DNA from: Escherichia phage Bf23
DNA: 64,000 nucleotides
Direction: 5' to 3' (one strand)
Sequence record: OR083247.1
The position numbers and the translations under genes are program-made. The stretch's first letter is position 1, and each line of letters begins with the position of its first letter. Below the pieces are notes generated by a model. It was not told the DNA's origin. It searched no databases and saw only the letters and a program-made list of their open reading frames with translations. Shown here piece after piece: positions 9,093 through 64,000 of this stretch.

Positions 9093-9503
9093 ATGACTAC
9101 TCCAACTCAGTGGACTGATGAACTGTTCGAAAAAATGTCTTCCGAATACGTTGCTCGTATGGAGCAATTCCCAGAGGATGAACGTCCGGGTGTTAGCATG
9201 GAAATTGTTAGCGAAATTGCCCAGGAAAATGGTGTAACTCCGAACGGTTTTCGTATGAAGCTGACTAAAGCAGGTTTGTATATCAAGAAAGCTGCTGGCT
9301 CTGCTTCTAAATCTAGCGCATCTACTGGAGAAAAAGCTTCCGGTGGTTCTCGTACCTCCAAAGCTCAAGCCCATGCCGACCTTCGTTCAGCTTTCTCTGA
9401 TGCTGGCTTAGCACCAGATTTTCTGGATGATGCAATTATCGACAAACTGACCGGTAAAGCGGCTGCTCATCTGGCAGAAGCAATCCGAGCTATCACTAAG
9501 TAA
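9093..9503 (+). CDS. Hypothetical protein (136 aa), Ala/Ser-rich middle
   Basis: ORF with RBS AAGGAAAT; host-like codon usage (GCT, CGT, CTG, GGT). Confidence 0.5.
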   Translation: MTTPTQWTDELFEKMSSEYVARMEQFPEDERPGVSMEIVSEIAQENGVTPNGFRMKLTKAGLYIKKAAGSASKSSASTGEKASGGSRTSKAQAHADLRSAFSDAGLAPDFLDDAIIDKLTGKAAAHLAEAIRAITK

Positions 9504-9540
9504 TATTTAGATAAATCCACCAACAAAAGGAACTATAGCT

Positions 9541-9837
9541 ATGACTAAAGCTGAAATTATTGCACAGTGCGAAAAATTTGGTGAGTTTTATCTTCATTAC
9601 GAGAAACTTCGTCAGAAAGGAACCACGTACCTTCAGGGTACAATGGAATTTGATCCGGCCCAAGATAAATATCTGGCTGAGCGTATTAAACGTGAACGTA
9701 TTCGTAAAGCGAAAGATGATGAAATCCTTGTCTTCTCTCGTACTAATGATAGCTTCCGTTTTATTCCTGTCGAGAAAGTTCGTCGTGTGACTAGCCTCCA
9801 ATCAGAGTTAGATCGTGCTTCTCCAGTAGGCCGATAA
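9541..9837 (+). CDS. Hypothetical protein (98 aa)
   Basis: ORF with RBS AAAGGAAC; terminator immediately downstream. Confidence 0.5.
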   Translation: MTKAEIIAQCEKFGEFYLHYEKLRQKGTTYLQGTMEFDPAQDKYLAERIKRERIRKAKDDEILVFSRTNDSFRFIPVEKVRRVTSLQSELDRASPVGR

Positions 9838-9847
9838 GAAAACAATT

Positions 9848-9869
9848 AGCCCCTATATGGGGCTTTTTG
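9848..9869 (+). terminator. Rho-independent terminator
   Basis: AGCCCC-TATAT-GGGGCT followed by TTTTT. Confidence 0.7.
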
Positions 9870-9887
9870 TGTATTTGGGATATGTAA

Positions 9888-10196
9888 ATGAGCGAACAGG
9901 TAAATCAAAACTATGAAGGACACGTTGATGACCAGTCCATCATACTTTGGGAGAAGGAGGGGGAACAAGTAAGATTAACAGTATCTGAATTTCGTGGGAA
10001 TCTATACATGGGTATTCGTTACTGGCTTCTTGATATTAATGATGAATGGTTTCCAACGAAATCTGGCTTCTCTTTTCCTTACACCCTAGAAACAACATCA
10101 CAGCTTTTCTATGCGTTTACACAGATTCTTAGCGAATCTGAGGTTTTACATGAAGTACAGAAACGAGCTGAAGAACTCAAAGCCAAGAATGCCTAG
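9888..10196 (+). CDS. PC4/Sub1-like ssDNA-binding protein
   Basis: VRLTVSEFRGNLYMGIRYW and PTKSGFSFP resemble the PC4 C-terminal domain (..VSVRDFKGK.LIDIREYW..P.RKGISL). A PC4-like protein is known from T5-like phages. Confidence 0.55.
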   Translation: MSEQVNQNYEGHVDDQSIILWEKEGEQVRLTVSEFRGNLYMGIRYWLLDINDEWFPTKSGFSFPYTLETTSQLFYAFTQILSESEVLHEVQKRAEELKAKNA

Positions 10197-10210
10197 TTCT
10201 TGGCTTTTTC
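10182..10210 (+). terminator. Rho-independent terminator overlapping the stop of the PC4-like gene
   Basis: GCCAAGAA-TGCCTAG-TTCTTGGC followed by TTTTTCTTT. Confidence 0.65.
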
Positions 10211-10220
10211 TTTATAAATG

Positions 10221-22580: not shown

Positions 22581-24399
22581 GACACTAAAATTTAGTAACG
22601 TTATGTCTTACGGTAAGGACATCGTAATTCATTTCGATAAGAATCCAGTTACTCAATTAATTGGTGGCAATGGGCTAGGGAAGTCCACCATCGCCACGGT
22701 TATCGAGGAATTGTTTTATAACAAGAACTCTCGAGGTATCAAGAAGGATGCTCTATTCTCCTGGGCTTCTCCGAAGAAAGAGTATGATATGCACGCTTAC
22801 TTCTCAAAAGATGAAGATGAGTATGAATTGCATAAAGTAGTTAAATCAACTGCTAAGATTACACTCATTAAGAATGGGGAAGATATTAGCGGACATACGG
22901 CAACCCAAACATATAAGATGATTGAAGAAATTATGGGTGGTGACTTTCAAACATTCACCAAACTGATTTATCAATCAGTGGGTTCCAACCTAGATTTTCT
23001 AAAAGCAACAGATGCAACACGTAAGGCTTTTCTTGTTAATTTGTTCAATCAAGAACAGTACAAAGAAATGTCGGAAACTATTAAGGCTGACCGTAAAGAA
23101 ATAGCAAATACCTTAAATAATTTGCAGGGCCAAATGGCTGTAATTACAAAAATCCTTAATGGAAAAAATAATCTAGGAACTTTGCAGGAACCTGTAGAAG
23201 TACCGGAGTTTGATGAAGAGCCATTAGCACAAGAACTTACTGAATCGAAAATTAAGGCGGCATTAGCCAAGTCTCAAGAGGCTAATATTACTAAGTTGCG
23301 TAATTTGGACAAAGCTGTACAAGTTGCCGAACAATCTTTCGAACCTTTCAAAAATTTGCCCGCGCCCACCGACCTAAATGAAGAGATCTCGAGTGTTACG
23401 CGTGACCTAACGATTGTGACCTCACGTGCGAGCGAAGTTAAGAAACGTTATCAGAAGTTCAAGCAAGAGGCTTCAAATACTGAATGTCCTACTTGTGGTA
23501 CTCATCTGGATACAACTGCTGCTCAAAAAGCAATGGATATGGCTAGAGTAGAATATGATCCTCTGTTCAAAGAGAAGCAATCTCTTGAAGCTAAGCTAGA
23601 ACAGTTGAAGAAAGAACAACTTGAGTACGTTGCGTATACTAGAGCAAAGGATGCTTTGGATAAAGCAGTGGTAGCTAGAGACGAGTTCAAAAATTCAATG
23701 AGTGATGCTTCTTTTGAAGAACTCAATGTGCAAATCCTACAGGTGCAAATCCGACAACTAGAACAGGAAATCGCTGATGGCCGCTCTAAGGTTGCAATTG
23801 CCAAAGAGCATAATGCAAATGTCGAATTAGCCAATGCAAAATATAAAGCAAAGTTAGAGCAGATTGAGAAAGCAGAAGCAGAAATGACTGAGATTACTTC
23901 CAAACTTGATGGAGTAGCCGAAGCTGTAGCTGATCTCGATATTCTAATTGCTGCATTGAAAAATCTGGTGGGGTATAAACTAGAGCATAGTGTGAAAGTA
24001 TTTGAAGAGCTAATTAATAAATACCTTTCTATTATGACTGGCGGTAAATTCGCACTTGGATTTGAACTAGATGAAACTAAATTACAAGTAGTAATCTTCA
24101 ATGATGGAAATCGTACCAGTATGGAGAACTGCTCTACTGGTCAGCAAAGTCGAATCAACCTAGCAACTCTGTTAGCGATTCGTATGCTGTTAACATCTAT
24201 TAGTAAAGTTAATATTAATCTTCTATTCCTTGATGAAGTAATTAGCTTTATTGATACGAAAGGGCTTGATACTCTCGTTGAACTATTAAATGAGGAAGAA
24301 AGTCTAAATTCTATCATTGTTTCTCATGGGCATACGCATCCATTAGCTCATAAGATTACTGTCAAAAAAGATGCAGAAGGATTTTCCTACTTAGAATAA
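22561..24399 (+). CDS. sbcC: SbcC/Rad50-like ATPase subunit (start moved to ATG 22561, MSKITIKTL..)
   Basis: Walker A GGNGLGKST, long coiled-coil middle with zinc hook CPTCGT, Walker B LLFLDEVISFID. The upstream in-frame stretch from 22459 overlaps sbcD and is probably not translated. Confidence 0.85.
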   Translation: MSKITIKTLKFSNVMSYGKDIVIHFDKNPVTQLIGGNGLGKSTIATVIEELFYNKNSRGIKKDALFSWASPKKEYDMHAYFSKDEDEYELHKVVKSTAKITLIKNGEDISGHTATQTYKMIEEIMGGDFQTFTKLIYQSVGSNLDFLKATDATRKAFLVNLFNQEQYKEMSETIKADRKEIANTLNNLQGQMAVITKILNGKNNLGTLQEPVEVPEFDEEPLAQELTESKIKAALAKSQEANITKLRNLDKAVQVAEQSFEPFKNLPAPTDLNEEISSVTRDLTIVTSRASEVKKRYQKFKQEASNTECPTCGTHLDTTAAQKAMDMARVEYDPLFKEKQSLEAKLEQLKKEQLEYVAYTRAKDALDKAVVARDEFKNSMSDASFEELNVQILQVQIRQLEQEIADGRSKVAIAKEHNANVELANAKYKAKLEQIEKAEAEMTEITSKLDGVAEAVADLDILIAALKNLVGYKLEHSVKVFEELINKYLSIMTGGKFALGFELDETKLQVVIFNDGNRTSMENCSTGQQSRINLATLLAIRMLLTSISKVNINLLFLDEVISFIDTKGLDTLVELLNEEESLNSIIVSHGHTHPLAHKITVKKDAEGFSYLE

Positions 24400-54215: not shown

Positions 54216-54379
54216 TTAACTTTTTGCCAAATTTCATAAGATTACACATGAGGATGTGCTCACTGCCTCCGGCGAAAATACTTAGTCTGCTAACCGCCAC
54301 ACCCGTTATTATTACCATGCTAACTGTTTCACCCTGCAACCATTTTAATTGCAAGGTGAAACAATTTCAACCTTAATTA

Positions 54380-55114
54380 TTATGCGACTTTTAGTTTTTC
54401 AATATATTGTTGCGGGCTGCAACTATATTCTGCGCGTTCTTCCTCGGTCATACTTTCCCAACATAATTGCAAGCGATCGGCTAGGAACTGATAATCATTA
54501 TCATCGTCGAGCGATTCATCGATAAAGGTTTCACCTATCAATGTCACGCCGATTGATAGAATATCATTAATAGCTTGTGCGTCCAGCGTTTTAAACCCGT
54601 ATGATGCCGCCGCCGATAGCACGCCCTTATGATCATCAATCATCGTGAAATCAGCGTTTGGATATAGCTGTTTAAATAACTCAAAGTAATGGCTTTTATA
54701 TATAGCATCTTTACTGTGGTATATTTCGCTAACTTTATCAGCCTCAAAATATTTGTGTAGTGTGTCGCGGGAAAATACACGGATATTACTATCCCCACGC
54801 CCTCGCAGTCCTTGTTTGCGTAGGTAATAATAATCTGACTTACTCATCAGTCGAGCGGTACAAATAATGTTTAACGTGTTAACGTCATTCATACATTGGC
54901 GCATATATGTAACAAGCGGCAATAGTGTGTCCTGCATTATTAAATCATGTTTACATGCTTCATTCTTATATTTATTTAAATCTAAATTACCATCGTTATC
55001 AAAGCAAGGCGCTACGCGATGGAATGAGTTAACGATAGTGCCGTCCAGATCCCAGATCATGACGCGGGAAATATGCGGGAAATTACGGGTAATATTCGTT
55101 TTAACTTGATTCAT
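54380..55114 (-). CDS. dmp: 5'-deoxyribonucleotidase, HAD family, T5 Dmp-like (244 aa)
   Basis: HAD motif I in VMIWDLDGTIVNS; size and position among pre-early-type genes. Confidence 0.65.
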   Translation of the reverse strand: MNQVKTNITRNFPHISRVMIWDLDGTIVNSFHRVAPCFDNDGNLDLNKYKNEACKHDLIMQDTLLPLVTYMRQCMNDVNTLNIICTARLMSKSDYYYLRKQGLRGRGDSNIRVFSRDTLHKYFEADKVSEIYHSKDAIYKSHYFELFKQLYPNADFTMIDDHKGVLSAAASYGFKTLDAQAINDILSIGVTLIGETFIDESLDDDNDYQFLADRLQLCWESMTEEERAEYSCSPQQYIEKLKVA

Positions 55115-55188
55115 TTTGTTACGTTCTCCATTAAAGGGATTAAATTAAATTAATCCAGCCCACTGGATGGGCTGGGCTATTCCAGCTA

Positions 55189-55584
55189 TTAAAGACCATA
55201 AGCCAACGCATCAGCGATGACGGTAATATCTTCACCCGATACATCGGAACGGATGCCCGCGCATGTAAATACTTTTGCGCTCATTAGCTGATCATCAAGG
55301 CAAGCGGGACAAGGGGCAACTACTGCGAAAGCTAAACCTGATTTTACGGCATCGATGATAATCGTTTCTTGTTTCACCGTGTCAATATAAACGCCTTTCG
55401 CCTTGATGCGGCTGGATAACTTGCCCGTGGTATAGGCGAAAGTAGTGATCTGTAGCGCCTCGTTAAACTCGATTAAATCATCGACAACGTGACCGGCCTC
55501 AACGTGATACCGCTCACCATTAGAATAAACTAGGACGATAGAAGACTGAGCGCGATCGAATGGAATACGGTTAGAAATAGCCAT
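55189..55584 (-). CDS. Hypothetical protein (131 aa)
   Basis: ORF in the - strand pre-early chain; GC-richer codons. Confidence 0.5.
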   Translation of the reverse strand: MAISNRIPFDRAQSSIVLVYSNGERYHVEAGHVVDDLIEFNEALQITTFAYTTGKLSSRIKAKGVYIDTVKQETIIIDAVKSGLAFAVVAPCPACLDDQLMSAKVFTCAGIRSDVSGEDITVIADALAYGL

Positions 55585-55653
55585 GTTTATAACTCCAATT
55601 AATTTAATAAACTTTTATAGCGGCGGTATATTTCAACCGCCAACCTGATTTAT

Positions 55654-57318
55654 TTACGCAAAAAATTTACCATTCTTAAAGTCAATCAAGGTGCGCTGAC
55701 CGTTTGCATAGGTAATAACATGCGTTTGTGTCCAGCTTGACGCGCCAACGTTGTAACCCATGTCCAGACTACCAGACACGCCAGCGGTGTATACGCCGCC
55801 GTAAATACTGGCGGTATGAGTGTGCCCCGTGTTCAGTTTACCCAATTTCTTAAATTGCTTCGGATTGCCACGGCTCCCGTTAATGCCATTGTGACCGTGT
55901 ACGCCGCATTCAATGCCTGCAATCTTGAAAGATTGGTCAGTCGTTAGGAAAATGGCGTTAAACTCGCAACCTGCAACCTTGCGCAACGCATAATCTAGCA
56001 CGTTGAAAGTATCGTCTTTTTCTGCAATAGCTCCATAAATCGCGGCATTAAGGCGGTGATATAGTTCGGCGTTGGCTGGATCGTCTTTGATGTTAGCATT
56101 ACGATCATCCAGCCAACGGGATAGCGCCAGATCGTGGTTTGATTCTACGATGATCGTTTGAGAAAAATCGCGCTCCATTGATTCCAACACGCGACCGGTA
56201 TCGATAAGATCATCCAGAACTTTATCACGTCCGGCGGCGTATTGTTTTGCTAGGAATACACCCGAAGCGCGATTGTGATGGTTGCGTGATGTAAAATCAT
56301 GCACGTCATGGACAAATTGATATTTTGGTTTAAGAATATCAAGCAAGCTATTTTCGCCAGCCCATGACGCAGCGGCGCAATCATCATCCAGTTTTTCAGC
56401 GTGGACGTCGCCATATTGTAAACCTAAAACGTGCCCCGTTGTTTCATAGCATCCGGCGGGAGTAGCGCAAACATTCAGATCGTAAAAAACGCCGCTTTCG
56501 TCCATAGTTTCAAGCTGGCGCACAAAAAACTCACCGTCCTCGTCGAACTCGACAACAAGCGCACCGAAATTATGCAACGCTTCCGCTTTCTGTCCTGCTT
56601 TCTGCTGGATGTAGTTTTTTAGCGTTGCCGTGCCGGTTGAATACATACGGCGCACTACTTCACCTTTTAAAGCTGGGACGCTCTCGGCGGTGATTTTAGC
56701 CGCTCCAATTGCCAGACCTTCAAGGTTGAGCGCGGTTGCAGTTTCAGCAAATCCAGAAAGCGGATAATCTGCGGTAGGTAAAACGTTAATTTCAGCCATG
56801 AAAGCAAAGCGGCGATTATTCAAAAACACGTTTTTATTGCAGATATATTTGTCAAATGCGGAATCATATTTGATTCCTTCGGCGCCCTCGCCATTTTGAA
56901 AACCGTTTTTGTTATAAATAAACTTGCTAACCAGCAAATCAGCGCCGATATATTTAGCAAATTGCTCCAGTGAGGCTAAAAAGTTTTTATGCGGGAAAGT
57001 ATTATTCTGAATCGACGTAATAATAAAGCGTTTACCCTGCTTTACTTCCCAGCTTTCAACCGTGCTAGAAACAATCCCCGCCGCTTCTGGGCGCTCATCG
57101 TTTTTAATGGCTTTTGCTACTTTCGCCGCTTTCGGTTTAGCTGGTTTATTTGCTTCCAACCAATCACAAATCGCGGTCGAGTGTTTTGTAGTATCATAGA
57201 CCGCCTTTGATATATCGTCGCAGACTTCCAGTTTAGTGGCGCGCAGACGTTTACCATAGAAATTAAAGTCAGCGGCCATTTTCAGGATAACGGTTTGTTT
57301 TTCTGCGGAAATAATCAT
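55654..57318 (-). CDS. A1: Pre-early protein A1-like (554 aa), putative metallophosphoesterase-type nuclease
   Basis: Size close to that recalled for T5 A1; metallophosphatase-like His clusters (..GVHGHNGINGSRG.., ..GHTHTASIYGG..); neighbours dmp and A2-like genes. Confidence 0.65.
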   Translation of the reverse strand: MIISAEKQTVILKMAADFNFYGKRLRATKLEVCDDISKAVYDTTKHSTAICDWLEANKPAKPKAAKVAKAIKNDERPEAAGIVSSTVESWEVKQGKRFIITSIQNNTFPHKNFLASLEQFAKYIGADLLVSKFIYNKNGFQNGEGAEGIKYDSAFDKYICNKNVFLNNRRFAFMAEINVLPTADYPLSGFAETATALNLEGLAIGAAKITAESVPALKGEVVRRMYSTGTATLKNYIQQKAGQKAEALHNFGALVVEFDEDGEFFVRQLETMDESGVFYDLNVCATPAGCYETTGHVLGLQYGDVHAEKLDDDCAAASWAGENSLLDILKPKYQFVHDVHDFTSRNHHNRASGVFLAKQYAAGRDKVLDDLIDTGRVLESMERDFSQTIIVESNHDLALSRWLDDRNANIKDDPANAELYHRLNAAIYGAIAEKDDTFNVLDYALRKVAGCEFNAIFLTTDQSFKIAGIECGVHGHNGINGSRGNPKQFKKLGKLNTGHTHTASIYGGVYTAGVSGSLDMGYNVGASSWTQTHVITYANGQRTLIDFKNGKFFA

Positions 57319-57414
57319 AGTAATAAAGCTCCATTAAAGGGATTAAAAACGTTTGTTATTGGCAAATATTGCCAAATATAACGCCTTGAATAATAGGCGT
57401 TATAATTTGCAACA

Positions 57415-57612
57415 TTAATTTAAAGGCATAAGGCTAGAACTAACACCACAAGCAACGGCGGCAATAAAACAAATCAGACCTAAACGCTTTGCCAATTTAG
57501 ACTTACGCTTAAAATAATATGAATCTAAATCATTTTGAAAGTATGCAAATAATAATGAGGCCGCCATAATAAATAAGCCTAGAATTAACGATTCAGTGGG
57601 GTAAAAGATCAT
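57415..57612 (-). CDS. Small membrane protein (65 aa; start moved to ATG 57612 with RBS GGAG)
   Basis: Two hydrophobic helices; the upstream in-frame extension to 57660 would read through a perfect 20-bp palindrome. Confidence 0.4.
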   Translation of the reverse strand: MIFYPTESLILGLFIMAASLLFAYFQNDLDSYYFKRKSKLAKRLGLICFIAAVACGVSSSLMPLN

Positions 57613-57669
57613 TTTAATAACTCCAGTCAAAGGGAAATTATAGTGGGGAATATTCCCCACTAATTAAAT

Positions 57670-58086
57670 TTATTCACCTGCGGCTTGTTTTACTTCATCG
57701 GCAACGCCTAACAGTTGCGCCACGGCGTCCAGCGTTTCTAACTTTGCGCTTTCCAGACTTGCCAAATCGTCGGCGTCTTTGATAATGCCGGAATCAATAG
57801 CATGTTTAGCGATAACGCGTACATAATGAGCTTTGCGAATTGAACTACCGCCGCCAACTTTGCGCGGCTTATCGCTTTTCTGATACGCTTTCGCGCTGGT
57901 CAATTTTGAGCGAACAGACACGGGAGAAGCCGCGCCAACTGTTTTAGCAATCTCTTTCAGGCCGTCGCTGTTGGCGAACTCCAAGCCGTTTTCGTTGATC
58001 AACTGTTGATACATGGTAACAGCCTGTTGGGTGTTTTCTTCATTCCAAGCAAATTTTGCGGATTTTTCGGTTTTAACGTTAGCCAT
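57670..58086 (-). CDS. A2: Pre-early protein A2-like, putative DNA-binding protein (138 aa)
   Basis: Size and position relative to the A1-like gene; Lys/Ala-rich. Confidence 0.55.
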   Translation of the reverse strand: MANVKTEKSAKFAWNEENTQQAVTMYQQLINENGLEFANSDGLKEIAKTVGAASPVSVRSKLTSAKAYQKSDKPRKVGGGSSIRKAHYVRVIAKHAIDSGIIKDADDLASLESAKLETLDAVAQLLGVADEVKQAAGE

Positions 58087-58184
58087 GATTATAACTCCTA
58101 TTGAATTAATTTAAGGGATAAGATTAACATAATGTTAATCGTTATATACCCCAAACTACTGGGGTATATAAAGTTAACACTAAG

Positions 58185-58436
58185 TTATAAAACAGCTTCC
58201 CATTTTTCGTTGCGTTGAACAACCTTTACAACGTCGCCGGATTTAACGCGAACGCTAAAAACGGTTTTGCCGTTGTTACTACGTTCATTTTCAGCGTATA
58301 CCGCGTCGATTGTATCAAACGGCATAAGCGCCACACCTTTAATGCGTTCGGTTTTTCCGGTTAATTCGTCCGTTTTAGTAACGAAAGGAATAAAAACGGA
58401 TTGACCAATTTTAGGCGCGGTAATAACGTTTTTCAT
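58185..58436 (-). CDS. Hypothetical protein (83 aa)
   Basis: ORF with RBS AGGAG; leader contains a 10-bp-stem hairpin. Confidence 0.45.
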   Translation of the reverse strand: MKNVITAPKIGQSVFIPFVTKTDELTGKTERIKGVALMPFDTIDAVYAENERSNNGKTVFSVRVKSGDVVKVVQRNEKWEAVL

Positions 58437-58663
58437 AGTATAAACTCCTAGTTATTTGGGGATTGTTCCGCATTACCTGCTAGAAAGTAGCAGGTAATAA
58501 GAAAAAATCCGCTCGCCAATATAATCAATTTAAAGAACTCCACTCAGGCCGCTATATCCCAGTTAGGGGGCGGGACACATTATGGTAAGTGCCGACCGTC
58601 AAATTGTATCAAGTTATCGCTCTTATCGAACTGGGTACATCTTAAAGCCTATCGGCTAGGGTG

Positions 58664-58867
58664 TCAAACAATTTTTTGCAGTTTTTTATGATTTTCTTTC
58701 AGGTCAATCATAATATTTCGCCAGATCATTTCCAGACCTTGCTGGCGGCCTTTCTTGTACTGCGTGAATCTATATCTTACGGATTGTTGAGCTACTGTCA
58801 ACAATTTTTTAGTAGTAACATCTAATTTTTTAGCTGGTTTACCAGTGATCAAAAGCGTTTGTTTCAT
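58664..58867 (-). CDS. Small basic protein (67 aa) bracketed by 24-bp inverted repeats
   Basis: Lys/Arg/Gln-rich ORF with RBS AAGGA; inverted repeats at 58633-58654 and 58904-58927. Confidence 0.4.
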   Translation of the reverse strand: MKQTLLITGKPAKKLDVTTKKLLTVAQQSVRYRFTQYKKGRQQGLEMIWRNIMIDLKENHKKLQKIV

Positions 58868-59320
58868 ATCTGCGATTCCTTATATAATTGATAAGTTTAC
58901 CGCCGATAGACTTTAAGATGTACCCAATTTTTAAAGAGCGTGGCGGTAAACTTCCCGCCGTGTAGTTCGTCATTGCCGCCCTACGAGATAAATAATAGGG
59001 GATTCCCAAAAATGGCGCAACCTTATTTTTGTAAAGAAACGTAAAGAAAGCAAATACTCGCAAGGTGTCCGGCGATTGCCCAAGTTTAAAGGAAACGGGC
59101 GCACGAATACCATAAAACCCAGCAGGTTGGCAAGTAATTTTTTCATTTATATTTGCCTTACCCTACTTGACAAAATCTAAAAAGCTCGTGGTAGCGATAA
59201 ACGAGGGTAGGCAATGCAATGGCCTGGCTAAAACTTTCATCGCGTTCTAGGGCGTTTTAGGCGCATTCTAGCCTTGTTGATAACTTATCCCCAGAAGCAA
59301 AAATGAAATTTTCCTAGTTA

Positions 59321-59351
59321 TCCACTTGACTTTTATTTTCCAGTGGATAAC
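59321..59351. promoter_or_regulatory. Inverted pair of DnaA-box-like sequences
   Basis: AGTTATCCACT..AGTGGATAACT around a 14-bp AT-rich centre. Confidence 0.5.
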
Positions 59352-59494
59352 TACTTATTTTATGAAATAAATTAATTGACTTTTATTTGTTAGTATGCAT
59401 CGGAAAGATAGCAGACTAATAATTGCTAGGATGATAATCATGCTGGTGGATTGTAACGGCTTAAACTATCAGCGGACTATTAATCACGGAAAAT

Positions 59495-59545
59495 CTCGTT
59501 AGCTAACTAACTATTTCATGATGTATAATATACATATAAATTAAT
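59495..59545 (+). promoter_or_regulatory. Early-family sigma70 promoter facing the + strand cassette
   Basis: TATAAT (59524-59529) with the family leader ATATAAATTAATGAGAAATAA; -35 is weak (AGCTAA). Confidence 0.5.
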
Positions 59546-59633
59546 GAGAAATAATAATTATAATAAATAATAACTACAGTAAATAATAACTATAAGAAAC
59601 TATCGGCCTAAGTGAGAACCACTATCATTTAAG

Positions 59634-59741
59634 TTATCCACAAGTTTATTAACAGCACAAAATGATTTGACACGATAGGCGGCGATATAAAGACTTATCC
59701 ACAGACTTATCCACAGGTTATCCTACTGTATAAATATACAG
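59634..59741. promoter_or_regulatory. Cluster of three consensus DnaA boxes plus a LexA-box-like palindrome
   Basis: TTATCCACA at 59634-59642, 59695-59703 and 59707-59715; CTGTATAAATATACAG (CTGT-N8-ACAG) at 59726-59741. Confidence 0.6.
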
Positions 59742-60007
59742 GGTAAATGGGTAGTGTTAACAACTGCAATCAATTTTAAGCGGCCTAAAACGCTTTCTAA
59801 CGAGCTAAATGCGGTGGGGTAATATTAAAGTAAAGCCTTCACCCGTCGCCCTGGTGGCTTCGCCGTGTTTTGCTCTTTACTATACCGCTGCGCGGTTAAC
59901 ATAAAAATAAGCGTTAGGCAAGGAAAATAAAAAGGTAAAATAATATTTGCCCCTAGAAAGAAAATACCTTTATCATTCACTCACCGATTAACGAGGGAGG
60001 CCAACAA

Positions 60008-61000
60008 ATGAGGCTATATAAACCAGATAACGCAACCGTCTTAAAAGGTGCGCTGCGTAACCTGCTGGACGGTAGCAGAACAACCAGCATTAAACACTTT
60101 GTTAACAAGGCCGAAGATATTCACCAAAACTTTTTTGATGATTTCGATGCCTATGATATGAGTAGTTTTTTACAACTGTATAAGCAAGGGGCAACGCTTG
60201 TTTTGTATAATCGAGATAATCACCTGCTTACTAGTAGGGGGCCGGATACCGATTTCATAATTGTAAAAGGTAGCACAGTAAAAGCCTATGACACTGGAGC
60301 GGGCTTAGAAGTTTTTTCAATAGAAAACTATGAAGCCAACCCCAATGATCTTTATGACGTTGAAAACTTTCTTGATTCATTTTGGCGTTATTTATCCGTT
60401 GGCTGGAATCGGTCAATTGGTGACGGGTATCGTCTGGCGGCTGTAATGACCTTTGATGATGATGGCAATTTTTTGCTACCGTCGGAAGTATACCCATACG
60501 TATATGATGGGGATATAGAAAGCGCGGGCTTTTCTTTCTGGAAAGAGGGGAATCAGCCTATTGACAACACGGAAAAACATGCTGTAAATTCTAACACTCA
60601 AAGCGTTAATACTCAAATCACTGAAAACAAAGGAAAAAACACCATGACCAAGATCGCTAATATTGTTGCCGCTAATAAATCCGCTGTTGTAAACGCTGCA
60701 AAACTGGAAGCGGGTAAAATTGCACTGACTCAAATTACGAAAGTAGCGGCTAAAAAAGCGCCGTTCATGATCAAAGGCTATATTGATACGCCGATTGGTC
60801 GAGTAGTGATTGCCAACCTGCTTAGCGTAGCGGTTGACCAGTACGCCCCGAGTAACCAGAAAGCGAAAGCGGTAGCAGGGGCAGCTATGGAAGCGGCAAT
60901 GCTAGAAATGGTGCAAAGTTTTAACATCGCTGAGATGATCGATGAAATGGTAAAAGGTATCGATATTTCTACTTTCACCGTTAACAACGAAAGCGAGTAA
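60008..61000 (+). CDS. Hypothetical protein (330 aa)
   Basis: ORF with RBS GAGGGAGG; Ala/Lys-rich C-terminal half; no motif. Confidence 0.5.
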   Translation: MRLYKPDNATVLKGALRNLLDGSRTTSIKHFVNKAEDIHQNFFDDFDAYDMSSFLQLYKQGATLVLYNRDNHLLTSRGPDTDFIIVKGSTVKAYDTGAGLEVFSIENYEANPNDLYDVENFLDSFWRYLSVGWNRSIGDGYRLAAVMTFDDDGNFLLPSEVYPYVYDGDIESAGFSFWKEGNQPIDNTEKHAVNSNTQSVNTQITENKGKNTMTKIANIVAANKSAVVNAAKLEAGKIALTQITKVAAKKAPFMIKGYIDTPIGRVVIANLLSVAVDQYAPSNQKAKAVAGAAMEAAMLEMVQSFNIAEMIDEMVKGIDISTFTVNNESE

Positions 61001-61065
61001 TAATATTAAGCGGGGATTGTTACCCCGCTTTAATGTTCCCTTGTTAATTAATAGGAGGCTAATTA

Positions 61066-61560
61066 ATGGCTGAAGAAAAATATGGCTTCTCACTGGGAGA
61101 AGTGAGCACGGCAAAACATGATATGATCATTTTGGTCGATTGCCATACTGGCTATTGCGGAGAAGGTTGGACGGAGGAACATTTTGTTCCAGCTGGCTGT
61201 AATCTGGACGCTTTCGCTCAGGAAATGGCTATTGATAATGCTTCTCGTTTTGGTAGCGATGGTTACGAAGACGAAGAAACTGGCGAATGGTATGAAAATG
61301 AAAACGTATATGCAAGCCTTTATCATTATCAGCTAAGTAAATCCGGCACATATGTAAACGGCGGCGATCCTATTAATTCCGTCATGAAATTAATTATTAA
61401 ATATGGCGGAGTAGAGATAGTTGGTAACAAAGCGGTAATATACGCAAACCGATTAAAACAGCTTGTTTATATTCCTGATAGTACCCGATGGGATGAATAT
61501 GCTGTTTTGCATGACGAATTGAAACGATGTTTCAATATTGAAACCTTACAAGTAGTCTAA
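61066..61560 (+). CDS. Hypothetical acidic protein (164 aa)
   Basis: ORF with RBS AGGAGG; no motif. Confidence 0.5.
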   Translation: MAEEKYGFSLGEVSTAKHDMIILVDCHTGYCGEGWTEEHFVPAGCNLDAFAQEMAIDNASRFGSDGYEDEETGEWYENENVYASLYHYQLSKSGTYVNGGDPINSVMKLIIKYGGVEIVGNKAVIYANRLKQLVYIPDSTRWDEYAVLHDELKRCFNIETLQVV

Positions 61561-61664
61561 TGTAAAGTTTTGTAAAGGTCGCCTTTTATGGTGGCCTTTT
61601 TTGTTATAATGCTTTTACACCAAAACGGTGGATTGAAAATTTCCCAAAAATTTGGAGGCTTAAA

Positions 61665-61895
61665 ATGGTTGCATATTCTTCTTCTGACGCTCTTTTCACT
61701 GGAAAAGGCTGGGTATCAAATCGCTGGATCATTCATGAAATGGTGCAAGAATACGGCATTGCTAAAACTTACACTACCATCCAGGCGCTTTATGATAATG
61801 ATCAAATTGATCAGCAAACGGCTGGTTTTTTGCTGGATACCCTGAAAGCGGAGCACTGTACTAAAAAACAAGCCGCCAAAATTGTTTTAATGTAA
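61665..61895 (+). CDS. Hypothetical protein (76 aa)
   Basis: ORF with RBS GGAGG upstream. Confidence 0.4.
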   Translation: MVAYSSSDALFTGKGWVSNRWIIHEMVQEYGIAKTYTTIQALYDNDQIDQQTAGFLLDTLKAEHCTKKQAAKIVLM

Positions 61896-61941
61896 TTAAT
61901 AACGGGGCGTTACTTTCGCCCCGCTAACTAGGAGAATGAAA

Positions 61942-62091
61942 ATGGTTATTTTTCGAGCTATTCTAGCAGGTATCTTGGGCGCTATTTTATCCCTTTTTGC
62001 TATAGCTTTTGGCGTTCACGCGGTTACTATTGGTGCTGGCATTGCTGTATTTTCTTATCTGCTGGGCTGCATGACTAGTAAAGGAGAATAA
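61942..62091 (+). CDS. Small hydrophobic membrane peptide (49 aa; not in the ORF track)
   Basis: RBS AGGAGAA then ATG; MVIFRAILAGILGAILSLFAIAFGVHAVTIGAGIAVFSYLLGCM.. Confidence 0.35.
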   Translation: MVIFRAILAGILGAILSLFAIAFGVHAVTIGAGIAVFSYLLGCMTSKGE

Positions 62092-62093
62092 AA

Positions 62094-62306
62094 ATGATCC
62101 GCAACGTTTCTCTTGCACGTTCGAAAGGCTTTAAGCTGGTGGATGTTAACACGTTCGAGCGGGAAGATTGTAAAATCGAATATGTAGCACGTAATAAAAA
62201 TGCCTTTCGTGTTACCGAGAAAAAATTCGATAAGCGGGGCAACGTGATAGCTGAAACGGTTAAACATTTTGCCACCTTTTACGCTGCATTTCGTGGGGTA
62301 CTATGA
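62094..62306 (+). CDS. Hypothetical basic protein (70 aa)
   Basis: ORF with RBS AGGAGAA upstream. Confidence 0.4.
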   Translation: MIRNVSLARSKGFKLVDVNTFEREDCKIEYVARNKNAFRVTEKKFDKRGNVIAETVKHFATFYAAFRGVL

Positions 62307-62427
62307 AAAGCGTTATTGTTGTTATCCTTGCAATGGTTGGAGGTTTTACCGCCACCTTATTTAAGAATGACCCCCTTTTACTGGGGGTTTTTATGCTTTT
62401 ATCTGGATACCTGATTGGGAGGTTATA
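62303..62427 (+). CDS. Small membrane peptide (41 aa; not in the ORF track)
   Basis: ATGA overlap with the upstream ORF; MKSVIVVILAMVGGFTATLF..LLGVFMLLSGYLIG. Confidence 0.3.
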
Positions 62428-62429
62428 AA

Positions 62430-62774
62430 ATGGTTATTTATGAAGGCAACCGCTTTGTTACTAATTGCCGTCCGGCATTACTAGCAAACTACTTAAATCA
62501 GCTTTCCCCAGCTTATAAGGGCGTCATTAATATTTATGAAGGCAAGGCGCATTATAAAATTAATGCGGTCGTTGCCCGTGAACTAGCGTTTCAATTTTTG
62601 ACCTTTGCATCTTGTGATATTCAGGTCATGGGTGAGGCGTTAATTGCAGAAAATGAAGATGATTTTATTAATATTTTTCGCAAAGTATGCACCGAGCGCC
62701 TGATAATGAAAGGCGCATATATTCAATCCACTGCGGATAGTATTGAAACAGCGTTTCGAAAGGTGGCACAATGA
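62430..62774 (+). CDS. Hypothetical protein (114 aa; start at ATG 62430 after RBS GGGAGG)
   Basis: ORF 62415-62774 in the track, trimmed to the ATG with a proper RBS. Confidence 0.45.
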   Translation: MVIYEGNRFVTNCRPALLANYLNQLSPAYKGVINIYEGKAHYKINAVVARELAFQFLTFASCDIQVMGEALIAENEDDFINIFRKVCTERLIMKGAYIQSTADSIETAFRKVAQ

Positions 62775-62874
62775 AATTATATATTTTCGCGGGTAATGTT
62801 GAGGCTGCAAATGATTCCGCTGGTGGCGATAACGTTCGCCACTATTGGCAAAAATATATTTACTAGGCGTTATT

Positions 62875-63069
62875 ATGAGCAATAAAATTATTATAACTAA
62901 AACTACCACAATGGTTGACGTTTTTTATGTGCCCGATACGCTGGAAAACCGGCGAGCGGTCGAGCGGGGCGAATATGATAGCGTTATTTATGATGCCGAT
63001 GGTTACTACCGGCATTTGGTCGATTCCTATGGGGAGGAGGAGAAGATCACGCATCAATTACCGGACTGA
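62875..63069 (+). CDS. Hypothetical protein (64 aa from ATG 62875)
   Basis: ORF 62845-63069 in the track begins at a TTG; the internal ATG is preferred. Confidence 0.4.
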   Translation: MSNKIIITKTTTMVDVFYVPDTLENRRAVERGEYDSVIYDADGYYRHLVDSYGEEEKITHQLPD

Positions 63070-63210
63070 TAACAAGCGGGGAGCAGATCCCCGTTTTTCA
63101 CGCCTCCAGTTAAATACCCCTTTGTTTTAGTATCCCCACCAAAATTAAACGCGTTAGAATGCGATTCAGGACGTTTTAGGCGTATATTAGAATTATTCAC
63201 TACGTAGGAA

Positions 63211-63320
63211 TACTGTATAAATATACAGTAGAATAACTTGGGGATAAGTCTGTGGATAACGCCTCAAAATGGCTGGGATTCTGTCAAGTCAAATCGTGCT
63301 GTTAATAAGTCTGTGGATAA
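63211..63320. promoter_or_regulatory. LexA-box-like palindrome plus two consensus DnaA boxes, in inverted orientation relative to 59634-59741
   Basis: TACTGTATAAATATACAGTA at 63211-63230; TGTGGATAA (reverse complement of TTATCCACA) at 63251-63259 and 63312-63320. Confidence 0.6.
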
Positions 63321-63351
63321 CTTAAATAACAGTGTTTCTCACTTCCGTTTT

Positions 63352-63507
63352 TAAATGCGAATCATTATCATTCGCATTTCACTATCTAACCGATAATCAT
63401 TCCACTTTTTAAATGAGATTGATTCTCATTTCACTTTCTAAATGCGAATTATTATCATTCTCATTCCGCTTTTTAAATGAGAATGATTCTTATTATCATT
63501 CTCATTT
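63352..63507. repeat. Cluster of four related palindromic repeats (AAATG(C/A)GAAT..ATTC(G/T)CATTT units)
   Basis: Four units, each an inverted repeat with 10-13-bp arms around a short AT spacer, at about 63352-63380, 63411-63432, 63440-63468 and 63474-63507. Confidence 0.7.
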
Positions 63508-63531
63508 AGCGCAGGGCAATTGCCCTGCGCT
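63508..63531. repeat. Perfect 24-bp GC-rich palindrome containing two GCGC tetramers
   Basis: AGCGCAGGGCAATTGCCCTGCGCT, followed by TTTTG on the + strand. Confidence 0.7.
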
Positions 63532-63533
63532 TT

Positions 63534-63756
63534 TGTGCAAATCCGACATTTGCTCCAAGGGTTACGTGCTGGCGTATATGTGCAAATCCGACAATTTTTG
63601 GTAGTGTGCAAATCCGACCCGAAAAATTTTTATAGTGTGCGAATCCGACAATGAATTTTCCTAAAAACTCCAGCAATCACGAACTGCGTTCGAATCCTGT
63701 GGGATATGTGCAAATCCGACACGGTTTTTCTAGGGTTAAGATGTGCGAATCCGACA
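63534..63756 (+). repeat. Iteron-like array: six direct copies of TGTGC(A/G)AATCCGAC(A) with irregular AT-rich spacers
   Basis: Copies at 63534, 63579, 63605, 63636, 63707 and 63742, plus one degenerate copy near 63688; spacers 11-56 bp, usually ending in a T-run. Confidence 0.75.
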
Positions 63757-64000
63757 AGATTTTTGTGACTTCGATGGGAGGGTGTGTGATTGTATAGGTT
63801 TGAGGGGAAGATGAGAGAGCGAGAAAAATTTGAGGGGATAGAAGGATGTGGGCGCAGGATTGGTGCGGAGCACCTGATTTGCGGGGATTTTGGGGAAGAG
63901 TTGAGATAATTTGGGAAGATTTGAGATAGGTGCAGAAAAAGTAAAATTTTATTAGCAAAATGGGGCAAAATAGCTTGACAAGTGAAAATTCTTGTGGATC

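Follow-up and report, generated by a model that had tools for sequence, protein, structure and literature searches.

The window analysed here, 64,000 nucleotides of record OR083247.1, is by its sequence the final 64 kb of coliphage BF23, and positions 23300-23900 are 100% identical to the BF23 GenBank record X54455. The entire left terminal repeat (LTR) of T5 is colinear with window positions 54261-64000, and the terminal repeat (TR) of the window, at 54257-64000, comes to ~9,744 bp, compared with 9,743 bp published for BF23. Base 64000 aligns to the final TR base of T5 (10219) and, in Sw2, to the TR end set by PhageTerm, and the window thus ends at a genome terminus, as had been supposed from its position. 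This terminus, ...CTGTGGMTC|TAAAAAC, is common to T5, Sw2, Sealy, and KEY. Close to it lies a block of repeats (Table 1), with homologues of the pre-early genes A1, A2, and dmp upstream and a Rho-independent terminator as its left border. Mechanical ORFs of 38-112 aa overlap the block. A coding region was rejected because the T5 reference has no CDS between 9157 and 10936 and because relatives carry a frame-breaking 17-nt indel here, in agreement with the initial annotation, which had seen no credible ORF.

Positions 63,050-64,000 are colinear with T5 9,264-10,219 at ~88% identity (88.4% over 967 columns, blastn). This T5 interval overlaps misc_feature 9140-10149 of the T5 reference NC_005859, which is annotated as 'injection stop signal (iss)'; the iss of T5 is credited to Heusterspreute et al. 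1987. The elements follow the same order in T5 (terminator, palindrome, DnaA boxes, hairpin repeats, GC palindrome with the nick, direct repeats, terminus), and alignment to T5-family terminal repeats showed that the repeats of the block are conserved, being found in >400 T5-like phage records. Davison 2020 (bioRxiv 10.1101/866236) compared Repeat Region 3 across 25 T5-like phages and listed palD, IRD'-spacer-IRC', the DRC palindromes, palJ, the DRD repeats, and eight DnaA boxes, and BF23 uses two-step transfer according to the literature. Homology, position, conservation, and geometry, which are what this analysis provides, indicate that the block is very probably the right-terminal-repeat copy of the T5-type iss of BF23 (Davison's Repeat Region 3), made up of several distinct cis-signals and not of a single operator. 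The feature class has already been described, and the window adds no new element type. The initial annotation had listed six element classes, had suggested the repeat-rich non-coding end of a T5-type terminal repeat, and had guessed at an injection-stop signal. All six classes are present at the positions it gave, far above chance, the terminal repeat is borne out by T5 homology and the terminus alignment, and the guess matches the annotated iss of T5 by alignment.

Table 1. Features in and around the repeat block of the BF23 right terminal repeat (window coordinates)
Feature	Position	Strand	Sequence and remarks
Upstream inverted partner (Davison Repeat Region 2, IRC-spacer-IRD)	59610-59743		DnaA or DnaA-like boxes at 59634, 59646, 59695, 59707; second palindrome
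Second LexA-type palindrome	59724-59743		In the upstream inverted partner
Rho-independent terminator of the rightward pre-early operon	63077-63098	+	Left border of the block; aligns to T5 annotated terminator 9275-9296; stem found by the terminator scan on the opposite strand
LexA-type palindrome (Wang/Davison 'palD')	63211-63230		TACTGTATAAATATACAGTA; 19/20 against textbook consensus TACTGTATATATATACAGTA
IRD'-spacer-IRC' module	63213-63343		Inverted repeat of 59610-59741; described by Davison 2020
DnaA-box pair 1	63239-63259	-	TGGGGATAA (63239-63247), gtc, TGTGGATAA (consensus TTATCCACA on the minus strand)
DnaA-box pair 2	63300-63320	-	TGTTAATAA (63300-63308), gtc, TGTGGATAA
Four AT-rich palindromic repeats (Davison DRC/palE-I)	63353-63508		Unit AAATGMGAATSATT; 63353-63379, 63411-63431, 63441-63465, 63474-63508; repeat scan and folding
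palJ, perfect 24-bp GC-rich palindrome	63508-63531		AGCGCAGGGCAATTGCCCTGCGCT, then TTTT; fold z -5.85, -13.4 kcal/mol
Major nick signal	63524-63566	-	A/GCGCAGG (63530/63531), iteron 1 in the spacer, TTACG at 63562-63566; T5 nick mapping
Six direct repeats (iterons; Davison DRD)	63534-63755	+	TGTGCRAATCCGAC; starts 63534, 63579, 63605, 63636, 63707, 63742
G-rich short direct repeats	63797-63928	+	TTTGAGGGGA; TTGGGGAAGAGTTGAGATA; repeat scan
Conserved terminus	63975-64000	+	...TTGACAAGTGAAAATTCTTGTGGATC; base 64000 is the physical right end of the genome (T5 and Sw2 alignment)

The block opens with the LexA-type palindrome. The near-consensus LexA box of the initial annotation was recovered as a 19/20 match with 0 expected, since 100 shuffles gave 0 matches at <=3 mismatches, and CTGT-N8-ACAG occurs 4 times in the window compared with 0.95 expected. 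Both TR copies of the palindrome carry an identical 16-mer, none of 19 distinct close relatives departs from its CTG...CAG, and the palindrome is retained in phages of Klebsiella, Erwinia, Pectobacterium, and Vibrio. Some phages have an ACAG->CCAG variant of the site, and a second copy in Vibrio phages reads ATGTAT...ACAG, without the C of CTG. These variants suggest that the conserved entity may be TGTATAWWTATACA, read by another protein.

Behind the palindrome, the two consensus DnaA boxes noted previously were found on the minus strand at 63251-63259 and 63312-63320, the second starting 61 bp after the first. The window holds 6 consensus boxes compared with 0.64 expected, and 5/6 are within the TR. 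A near-consensus box lies 3 bp ahead of each of the two, which had been overlooked, as had the inverted partner of 63213-63343 at 59610-59741. By blastn, T5 6098-6228 corresponds to window 63343-63213 and T5 9411-9542 to window 59741-59610. DnaA or DnaA-like boxes total eight over both modules and are paired 3 bp apart. The offsets of the DnaA boxes from the start of the palindrome (+41 and +102) are identical in T5, Sw2, Sealy, KEY, and DU_PP_V. Close relatives, in which the whole block is 83-95% conserved, are uninformative about motif versus filler, and distant relatives are therefore needed to separate the two. Against the Vibrio and Pectobacterium phages, the positions of the palindrome and DnaA boxes are 85-87% identical compared with 42-56% elsewhere. 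A new point is that the palindrome and the paired DnaA boxes are preserved in both sequence and spacing among the Klebsiella, Erwinia, Pectobacterium, and Vibrio relatives, whereas the intervening DNA diverges. The composite of palindrome and DnaA boxes was found only in viral contigs of 96-128 kb (108-128 kb in all but one), a distribution that is consistent with T5-like genomes.

At the other side of the AT-rich array, AGCGCAGG is present on the minus strand at 63524-63531, and a plus-strand copy lies at 63508. The T5 annotated 'major DNA single-chain interruption' at 9748/9749, also on the minus strand, aligns to window 63530/63531 at the right edge of palJ, where the sequence A/GCGCAGG conforms to R/GCGCRGG, the nick consensus published for T5 (AY543070). 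The initial annotation had placed, with some doubt, a major nick at a GCGC-containing site, and the T5 alignment bears this out. Elsewhere in the window the minus strand carries the motif just once, at the D13 'major nick site' of BF23 annotated in X54455. The site in the block is the predicted 7.9%/99.5% major minus-strand nick of T5-type genomes. Its GCGC motif lies 11 nt ahead of iteron 1 and ~30 nt ahead of a conserved TTACG, and 17 distinct iss loci, like all four major nicks of T5, have TTACR at +29 to +34. The conserved spacing of GCGC and TTACG suggests that the nick signal is bipartite, consisting of R/GCGCRGG and TTACG ~30 nt away. So far as the searchable literature shows, the TTACR element is absent from the published nick consensus.

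How these signals might act is a more tentative matter, and we propose as possible rather than probable that a complex of host DnaA, possibly with LexA, stops transfer and that A1/A2 restart it from the iterons. The block can be divided into (a) a putative host-factor module of one LexA-type palindrome with two DnaA-box pairs at fixed spacing and an inverted duplicate 3.6 kb upstream, (b) the AT-rich array, (c) the nick signal, (d) 14-bp iterons for a DNA-binding protein conserved family-wide, and (e) the G-rich repeats and the terminus. In the left-repeat copy, module (a) would enter the cell near the end of first-step transfer. Pre-existing host DnaA, and possibly LexA, would bind module (a) and its inverted partner, and an anchored or looped nucleoprotein complex would arrest transfer close to the nick. 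The iterons just past the stop point would be loading sites for phage A1/A2, which would restart transfer. The right-repeat copy in the window would be a duplicate of the same sequence and could not be the first-step stop. With FhuA proteoliposomes in vitro there is no stop and ejection is complete (Davison 2020), and a host factor is therefore needed for the stop; a DnaA-membrane stop model was proposed in the same work. One counter-argument is that it is not obvious how a protein on DNA already in the cell would halt DNA under push from the capsid. The fuller version, in which LexA, DnaA, and perhaps Fur are recruited to the last few hundred bp and to the inverted copy 3.6 kb upstream, and a looped membrane-proximal complex holds transfer until A1/A2 dismantle it, seems unlikely. 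The AT-rich repeats match the 19-mer of the Fur box at 14-16/19 positions.

LexA cleavage as a release timer, in which A1 degrades host DNA and the SOS response is induced, is attractive but disfavoured. One T5-like phage is propagated on DH5alpha. The genotype of DH5alpha is recA1, so LexA cleavage cannot be required for restart. Moreover, A2 is needed for restart and is dispensable for DNA degradation. No proposal linking LexA to T5-like phages was found in the searchable literature, which does not extend to Davison's review of 2015 or to the primary papers of 1987 and 2005, where the resemblance to an SOS box may have been mentioned earlier. The text of Davison 2020 mentions neither LexA/SOS nor Fur nor the nick.

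The iterons allow another interpretation. The six iteron-like repeats of the initial annotation are six exact copies of TGTGCRAATCCGAC, compared with 0.46 expected from shuffles even with 2 mismatches, and the label 'protein-loading site' that it gave to the block seems a fair description. The iterons are nearly invariant in close relatives, have recognisable copies in Pectobacterium and Vibrio phages, and are present in all three subfamilies. Their spacing is irregular (26-71 bp). In T5, Sw2, Sealy, and KEY they occur on both sides of the TR boundary, with 6-7 inside and 3-6 at 87-260 bp or more outside, and a tandem pair lies inside gene D13. Neither the copies outside the TR nor the pair in D13 are predicted by a pure restart role. 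Further downstream are the G-rich repeats, which had not been noticed before; KEY, Sealy, and VCPH have similar GGGGATAA/GGGGA repeats in the corresponding position. The iterons, the G-rich repeats, and the terminus might be mainly a packaging or terminus-generation signal, with terminase or a terminus-nicking factor binding the array in the concatemer junction and cutting the right TR boundary ~245-466 bp off. We consider this somewhat unlikely. It would account for iterons that flank the TR boundary and are conserved family-wide, as terminase is, and for a window ending exactly at the conserved terminus. The left end of T5 is injected first, and a packaging start at the right end would be expected if the last DNA in is the first out. 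However, the searchable literature describes no T5 pac site or small-terminase binding site, the pair in D13 is far from the termini, and the fixed distance of iteron 1 is to the nick motif (11 nt) and not to the terminus. For the right-repeat copy in the window, packaging would be the relevant function, and it may coexist with the stop function.

Returning to the DnaA-based stop, it must also be weighed against a purely structural one, in which the AT palindromes and the GC palindrome by the nick extrude hairpins or a cruciform that block the tail or membrane channel, with no host DNA-binding protein involved. The four related palindromes and the perfect 24-bp GCGC palindrome are where the initial annotation placed them. 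As single strands, palJ and three of the AT palindromes form much more stable structures than shuffled sequences do; the z-scores of all four AT palindromes are, in order, -5.3, -2.8, -1.9, and -7.9, and the third is thus weak. Furthermore, the nick is at the edge of palJ, and the FST shear point ~9618 (AY587007 numbering) is within the hairpin/nick zone. Nevertheless, a structural stop is quite unlikely. The complete ejection with FhuA proteoliposomes indicates that DNA alone is no absolute block. Interruption-deficient T5 mutants reportedly grow normally. The isolation of such mutants (Rogers et al. 1979) also counts against it. The AT-hairpin dyads are loosely maintained across 19 relatives, and we rejected the hairpins as selected structures because many pairs are broken and there is only one clear compensatory change; the middle repeats of Vibrio phages are completely different. 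The conservation of palJ is limited to Tequintavirus, Epseptimavirus, and one Sugarlandvirus, and Sugarlandvirus, Erwinia, Pectobacterium, and Vibrio relatives (Sealy, KEY, DU_PP_V, and the Vibrio phages) lack its left arm. CCTGCGC is kept in Sealy, KEY, and Vibrio Direpillow8 and is missing in DU_PP_V and VCPH. From this pattern, the conserved part is the GCGC motif rather than the palindrome. Conservation is lowest in the hairpins and the GC palindrome, which makes them the weakest candidates for a universal stop.

It is very unlikely that the block is a transcription-control region or an sRNA locus, with the LexA-type palindrome as the SOS operator of a promoter and palJ with its T-run ending a small transcript. 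Apart from the near-consensus SOS box, such a locus would explain the promoter-like hexamers that overlap the palindrome on the minus strand, the GC-rich stem of palJ followed by TTTT, and the sub-threshold sRNA matches on the plus strand, all of which stop at palJ. However, the hexamers are weak (9/12 positions only in the scan), and no annotated T5 promoter overlaps either copy of the palindrome. The sRNA scores are far below the gathering thresholds (31.5 versus 90 and 26 versus 45). palJ was not called by the terminator scan, has only 4 T, and is unconserved in distant relatives. A known RNA family was rejected, since the Rfam 15 scan of the block (best 31.5 bits versus a threshold of 90) gave no family at its gathering threshold and only sRNA-like hits, scored by E-value, that end at palJ. 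palJ as a terminator was rejected as well, its stem being strong and its T-run only TTTT where the criterion is >=5, with no call in the scan and poor conservation.

Since the 1960s, textbooks have treated the two-step DNA transfer of T5 as a curiosity. The comparison sharpens the targets for mutation, namely the palindrome and DnaA-box geometry, the nick motif with TTACG, and the iterons. What appears to be new here, as judged from the alignments, is the cross-genus geometry of the palindrome and DnaA boxes, the conservation of GCGC over the palindrome together with TTACG, and the poor AT-hairpin dyads.

Among known systems, the block shares clustered, close DnaA boxes and a direct-repeat array with oriC-type arrays and iteron or plasmid origins, but the replication origin that was the first impression of the initial annotation is hardly credible: although four DnaA or DnaA-like boxes occur here in pairs and four more upstream, the block is duplicated at both genome ends, the iterons are irregularly spaced, no initiator gene adjoins them, and T5 origins were mapped near the genome centre, the replication genes not being on first-step DNA (Davison 2020). 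To the E. coli SOS (LexA) box CTGT-N8-ACAG the palindrome has a palindromic likeness that is kept in phages whose hosts share that LexA motif, but it seems to have no convincing promoter overlap, and some variants would weaken the LexA match. The major interruption sites of T5 and BF23 have the same motif on the minus strand, at the 7.9%/99.5% nick position of T5. Unlike the other major nick sites, the BF23 iss motif lies inside a palindrome with an iteron next to it. Compared with the iss of T5, the copy seen here belongs to the right repeat and lacks a 17-nt segment of the T5 hairpin array, iteron 5 is displaced by ~10 nt, and the left arm of palJ has a second GCGC that is absent from T5. 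The first main DnaA box of the T5 iss is TGTTGATAA, whereas both main boxes of BF23 are consensus. Every named element of Davison's Repeat Region 3 (palD, IRD'/IRC', DRC, palE-J, DRD, and the inverted partner in Repeat Region 2) is present in the BF23 block.

By alignment, the repeat block at 63,050-64,000 is the known, annotated injection-stop region of T5 and BF23, in its right-repeat copy, and no new kind of element. The last kilobase of the window matches 445 phage records, essentially all T5-like, and 407 phage records contain the region at a coverage of at least 80% (database sequence searches). In records that begin at the left terminus, the match to the last kilobase lies 9-10 kb from that end. 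Window positions 54,261-64,000 are colinear with the T5 left terminal repeat at 84-92% identity, which puts the length of the BF23 repeat near 9,744 bp; published figures are 9,743 bp for the repeat and 114,544 bp for the genome. Base 64,000 aligns to T5 10,219, the final base of the annotated T5 repeat, and to the end that PhageTerm defines for the repeat of Salmonella phage Sw2 (...CTGTGGCTC, followed by TAAAAAC); the last base of the window is therefore the physical right terminus. Upstream of the block are homologues of dmp, A1 ('DNA transfer protein') and A2 ('DNA binding protein'). The initial annotation had seen no credible ORF here; ORFs called mechanically do overlap the region, none is annotated in the T5 reference, and a 17-nt indel separates relatives within it. 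It had also suspected the repeat-rich end of a T5-type terminal repeat, with an injection-stop signal and a nick at a GCGC site, and alignment to the T5 features and to the repeat ends of T5 and Sw2 bears this out. All of the elements that it named are present.

Features of the injection-stop region and its inverted partner
Feature	Window position	T5 position	Strand	Sequence	Source or remark
Injection stop signal (iss)		9,140-10,149			T5 reference annotation
Terminator	63,077-63,098	9,275-9,296			T5 annotation and alignment
Inverted partner (Davison IRC-spacer-IRD)	59,610-59,741				Sequence comparison with T5
LexA-type box	63,211-63,230			TACTGTATAAATATACAGTA	One position off the textbook SOS consensus
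Consensus DnaA boxes	63,251-63,259; 63,312-63,320		minus	TTATCCACA
Four AT-rich palindromes					Repeat finder
Perfect 24-bp palindrome (palJ)	63,508-63,531			AGCGCAGGGCAATTGCCCTGCGCT	Repeat finder
Major DNA single-chain interruption	63,530/63,531	9,748/9,749	minus		T5 annotation and alignment
Iterons, six exact copies	starts 63,534, 63,579, 63,605, 63,636, 63,707, 63,742			TGTGCRAATCCGAC

The LexA-type palindrome and two pairs of DnaA boxes form a module at the left of the block. No window shuffle gave a match to the LexA-type box at three or fewer mismatches. The window has six consensus DnaA boxes (0.64 expected), five of them within the final 4.4 kb, and a box with one or two mismatches lies 3 bp before each of the two in the module. 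The inverted partner holds three consensus and one near-consensus DnaA boxes and a second LexA-type palindrome. More DnaA-like boxes (TGTTGATAA, TTATCCCCA, TTATCCACT, AGTGGATAA) lie to its left in non-coding DNA at 59270-59350, which is probably Davison's Repeat Region 1.

Klebsiella Sugarlandvirus sequences are alignable only over the first 180-260 bp of the region, and the alignment of one Vibrio phage is limited to the palindrome and the first DnaA pair. The loci read directly were Sw2 (Salmonella), Sealy and vB_Kpn_3 (Klebsiella), KEY (Erwinia), DU_PP_V (Pectobacterium), and VCPH and Direpillow8 (Vibrio). In all of them the parts run palindrome, DnaA pair, spacer, DnaA pair, short repeats, iteron-like repeats, G-rich repeats, end. 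Measured from the palindrome, the starts of the consensus boxes fall at +41 and +102 in six enterobacterial lineages; in the Vibrio phages they fall at +39/40 and +90/101. Against the Vibrio and Pectobacterium phages, identity is 85-87% within the palindrome and the boxes and 42-56% at the remaining positions. All 19 distinct close relatives keep the CTG...CAG of the palindrome unchanged. At its asymmetric centre (window 63220-63221) about half of them have AAAT and about half ATTT, each the reverse complement of the other, which would be expected from sequence exchange between the two inverted copies in the repeat; in a third form, ACAG is changed to CCAG. Contigs found to carry the palindrome-plus-DnaA composite were all viral and 96-128 kb long (108-128 kb with one exception), a size that fits T5-like genomes. 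In five Vibrio-type T5-like phages, a second AT-rich palindrome core (ATGTATAAATATACAGTT) abuts the second DnaA box, indicating that core and boxes travel together; this core is without the C of the CTG that LexA would need.

The T5 nick maps to the right edge of the GC palindrome, whose fold as single-stranded DNA has a z of -5.85 against shuffles. The minus strand there reads A/GCGCAGG and fits the published T5 nick consensus, R/GCGCRGG. The sole other minus-strand match in the window (23,359-23,366) coincides with the 'major nick site' of BF23 X54455 and with the T5 nick at 64.8%, which lies in gene D13; window 23,300-23,900 is 100% identical to this GenBank entry (BF23 genes 17/18). When conservation was checked across the T5 family, as had been proposed, the iterons held up and the full palindrome did not: Sealy, KEY, DU_PP_V and the Vibrio phages have no left arm. 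Six lineages retain CCTGCGCY, which starts exactly 11 nt before the first iteron, and a GCGC site precedes the iterons in most loci read, none being found in DU_PP_V. Judged by these alignments, the conserved unit is the nick motif rather than the 24-bp palindrome.

A second element, TTAC(G/A), lies 29-34 nt to the right of CCYGCGCY at each of the four major nicks annotated in T5, at both BF23 minus-strand motifs (63524-63566; 23359-23400) and in 17 distinct iss loci. It is absent at all four plus-strand copies in the window; the background probability of TTACG at +20 to +40 is 0.019. This pattern, noticed post hoc and at few independent sites, points to a nick signal in two parts, the spacer between them holding iteron 1. 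TTAC(G/A) could be the 'additional determinant' that, according to PMC3517423, must exist. The D13 nick site of Yersinia phage phiR201 (CCGCGCTCTTGTGCAAATCCGAC...GTTACGCGTG, the right part also given as GTGTTACGCGTG; about positions 160-210 of the locus) combines an iss-type nick motif, an iteron and TTACG inside the gene, whereas the spacers of the BF23, T5 and KpGranit D13 sites are unrelated to it. The composite points to exchange of sequence among nick sites. In BF23 and many relatives, a further match to the nick consensus, AGCGCAGG, arises from the left arm of the GC palindrome (63508-63515, plus strand); T5 has GAGC there. This match falls on the normally un-nicked strand. As it has no TTACG partner, it should stay intact under the two-part model.

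For the iterons, the expectation is 0.46 even with two mismatches allowed. Tandem iteron-like 14-mers (TGTGCAAATCCTAC / GGTGCAAATCCGAC) also occur at 23727-23755 inside the SbcC-like D13, some 365 nt to the right of the 64.8% nick. T5 and phiR201 carry the identical pair, and Klebsiella KpGranit lacks it; since the pair codes for VQILQ-VQIRQ, its conservation could be due to protein constraint. The consensus -35 hexamer TTGACA stands 25 nt short of the genome end (63975-64000). Any -10 would fall past the terminus, so that only concatemers or the left-repeat copy could hold the promoter-like site in full; across the boundary T5 reads ...GTGGCTC and then TAAAAACTC.

The four AT-rich palindromes had been described as hairpin-forming. 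Folding supports this for the first, second and fourth (z of -5.3, -2.8 and -7.9 as single-stranded DNA, well beyond shuffles), while the third is weak (-1.9). Their dyad symmetry is poorly kept in relatives, with one clear compensatory change only, and Vibrio phages have unrelated short repeats in their place. They thus resemble repeat units particular to a lineage more than hairpins under selection. The Fur-box 19-mer GATAATGATAATCATTATC agrees with these repeats (63351-63503) at 14-16 of its 19 positions, and 19 of the 21 window matches of at least 14/19 are within the terminal repeat; dmp contains a perfect 7-1-7 Fur core (TGATAATCATTATCA; 54489-54503). The likeness, not mentioned in Davison 2020, is a lead only. 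Five sub-threshold Rfam matches fall at 63401-63543 (PrrF, rliI, BSR0653, rli42, mt-tmRNA); the four to sRNA families have plus-strand orientation and stop at the GC palindrome. A generic 'hairpins plus terminator-like stem' shape, and not real RNA, probably accounts for them.

According to the literature, the stop needs no new protein synthesis, and A1 and A2 are both needed for restart. Transfer into FhuA proteoliposomes is complete in vitro (Davison 2020), and therefore something in the cell is needed for the stop. Homology, position, conservation and geometry are what the sequences show; our tentative reading of the mechanism is that a host-bound module arrests transfer near the nick and the iterons load restart proteins. 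Pre-existing DnaA, as Davison proposed, and possibly LexA would occupy the module together with its inverted partner; transfer would be halted by their anchored or looped complex, and the iterons just past the stop would be loading sites for phage proteins. The physics of braking from the cell interior is a point against such a brake, some palindrome variants weaken the LexA match, and iterons beyond the repeat boundary and inside D13 speak against a pure restart-loading role. The main rival, slightly less likely than this reading and compatible with it, is that iterons, G-rich repeats and the conserved terminus serve packaging or terminus formation. In T5, Sw2, Sealy and KEY these elements lie on both sides of the right repeat boundary, and packaging probably starts at the right end. 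A purely structural roadblock, a replication origin and an SOS-regulated promoter or sRNA locus are less likely.

LexA cleavage is disfavoured as the release step, since a T5-like phage is propagated on DH5alpha, which is recA1. The conserved LexA-type palindrome and the proposed bipartite nick signal offer concrete mutation targets for the old question of the stop. The LexA-box resemblance is absent from Davison's text and from searchable papers, although it may have been mentioned earlier elsewhere. The Davison 2020 preprint treats the whole block as 'Repeat Region 3', compares it over 25 T5-like phages and lists palC, palD, IRD'-spacer-IRC', DRE, DRC, palE-J, nine DRD repeats and DRA; its emphasis is on eight DnaA boxes, arranged in pairs.
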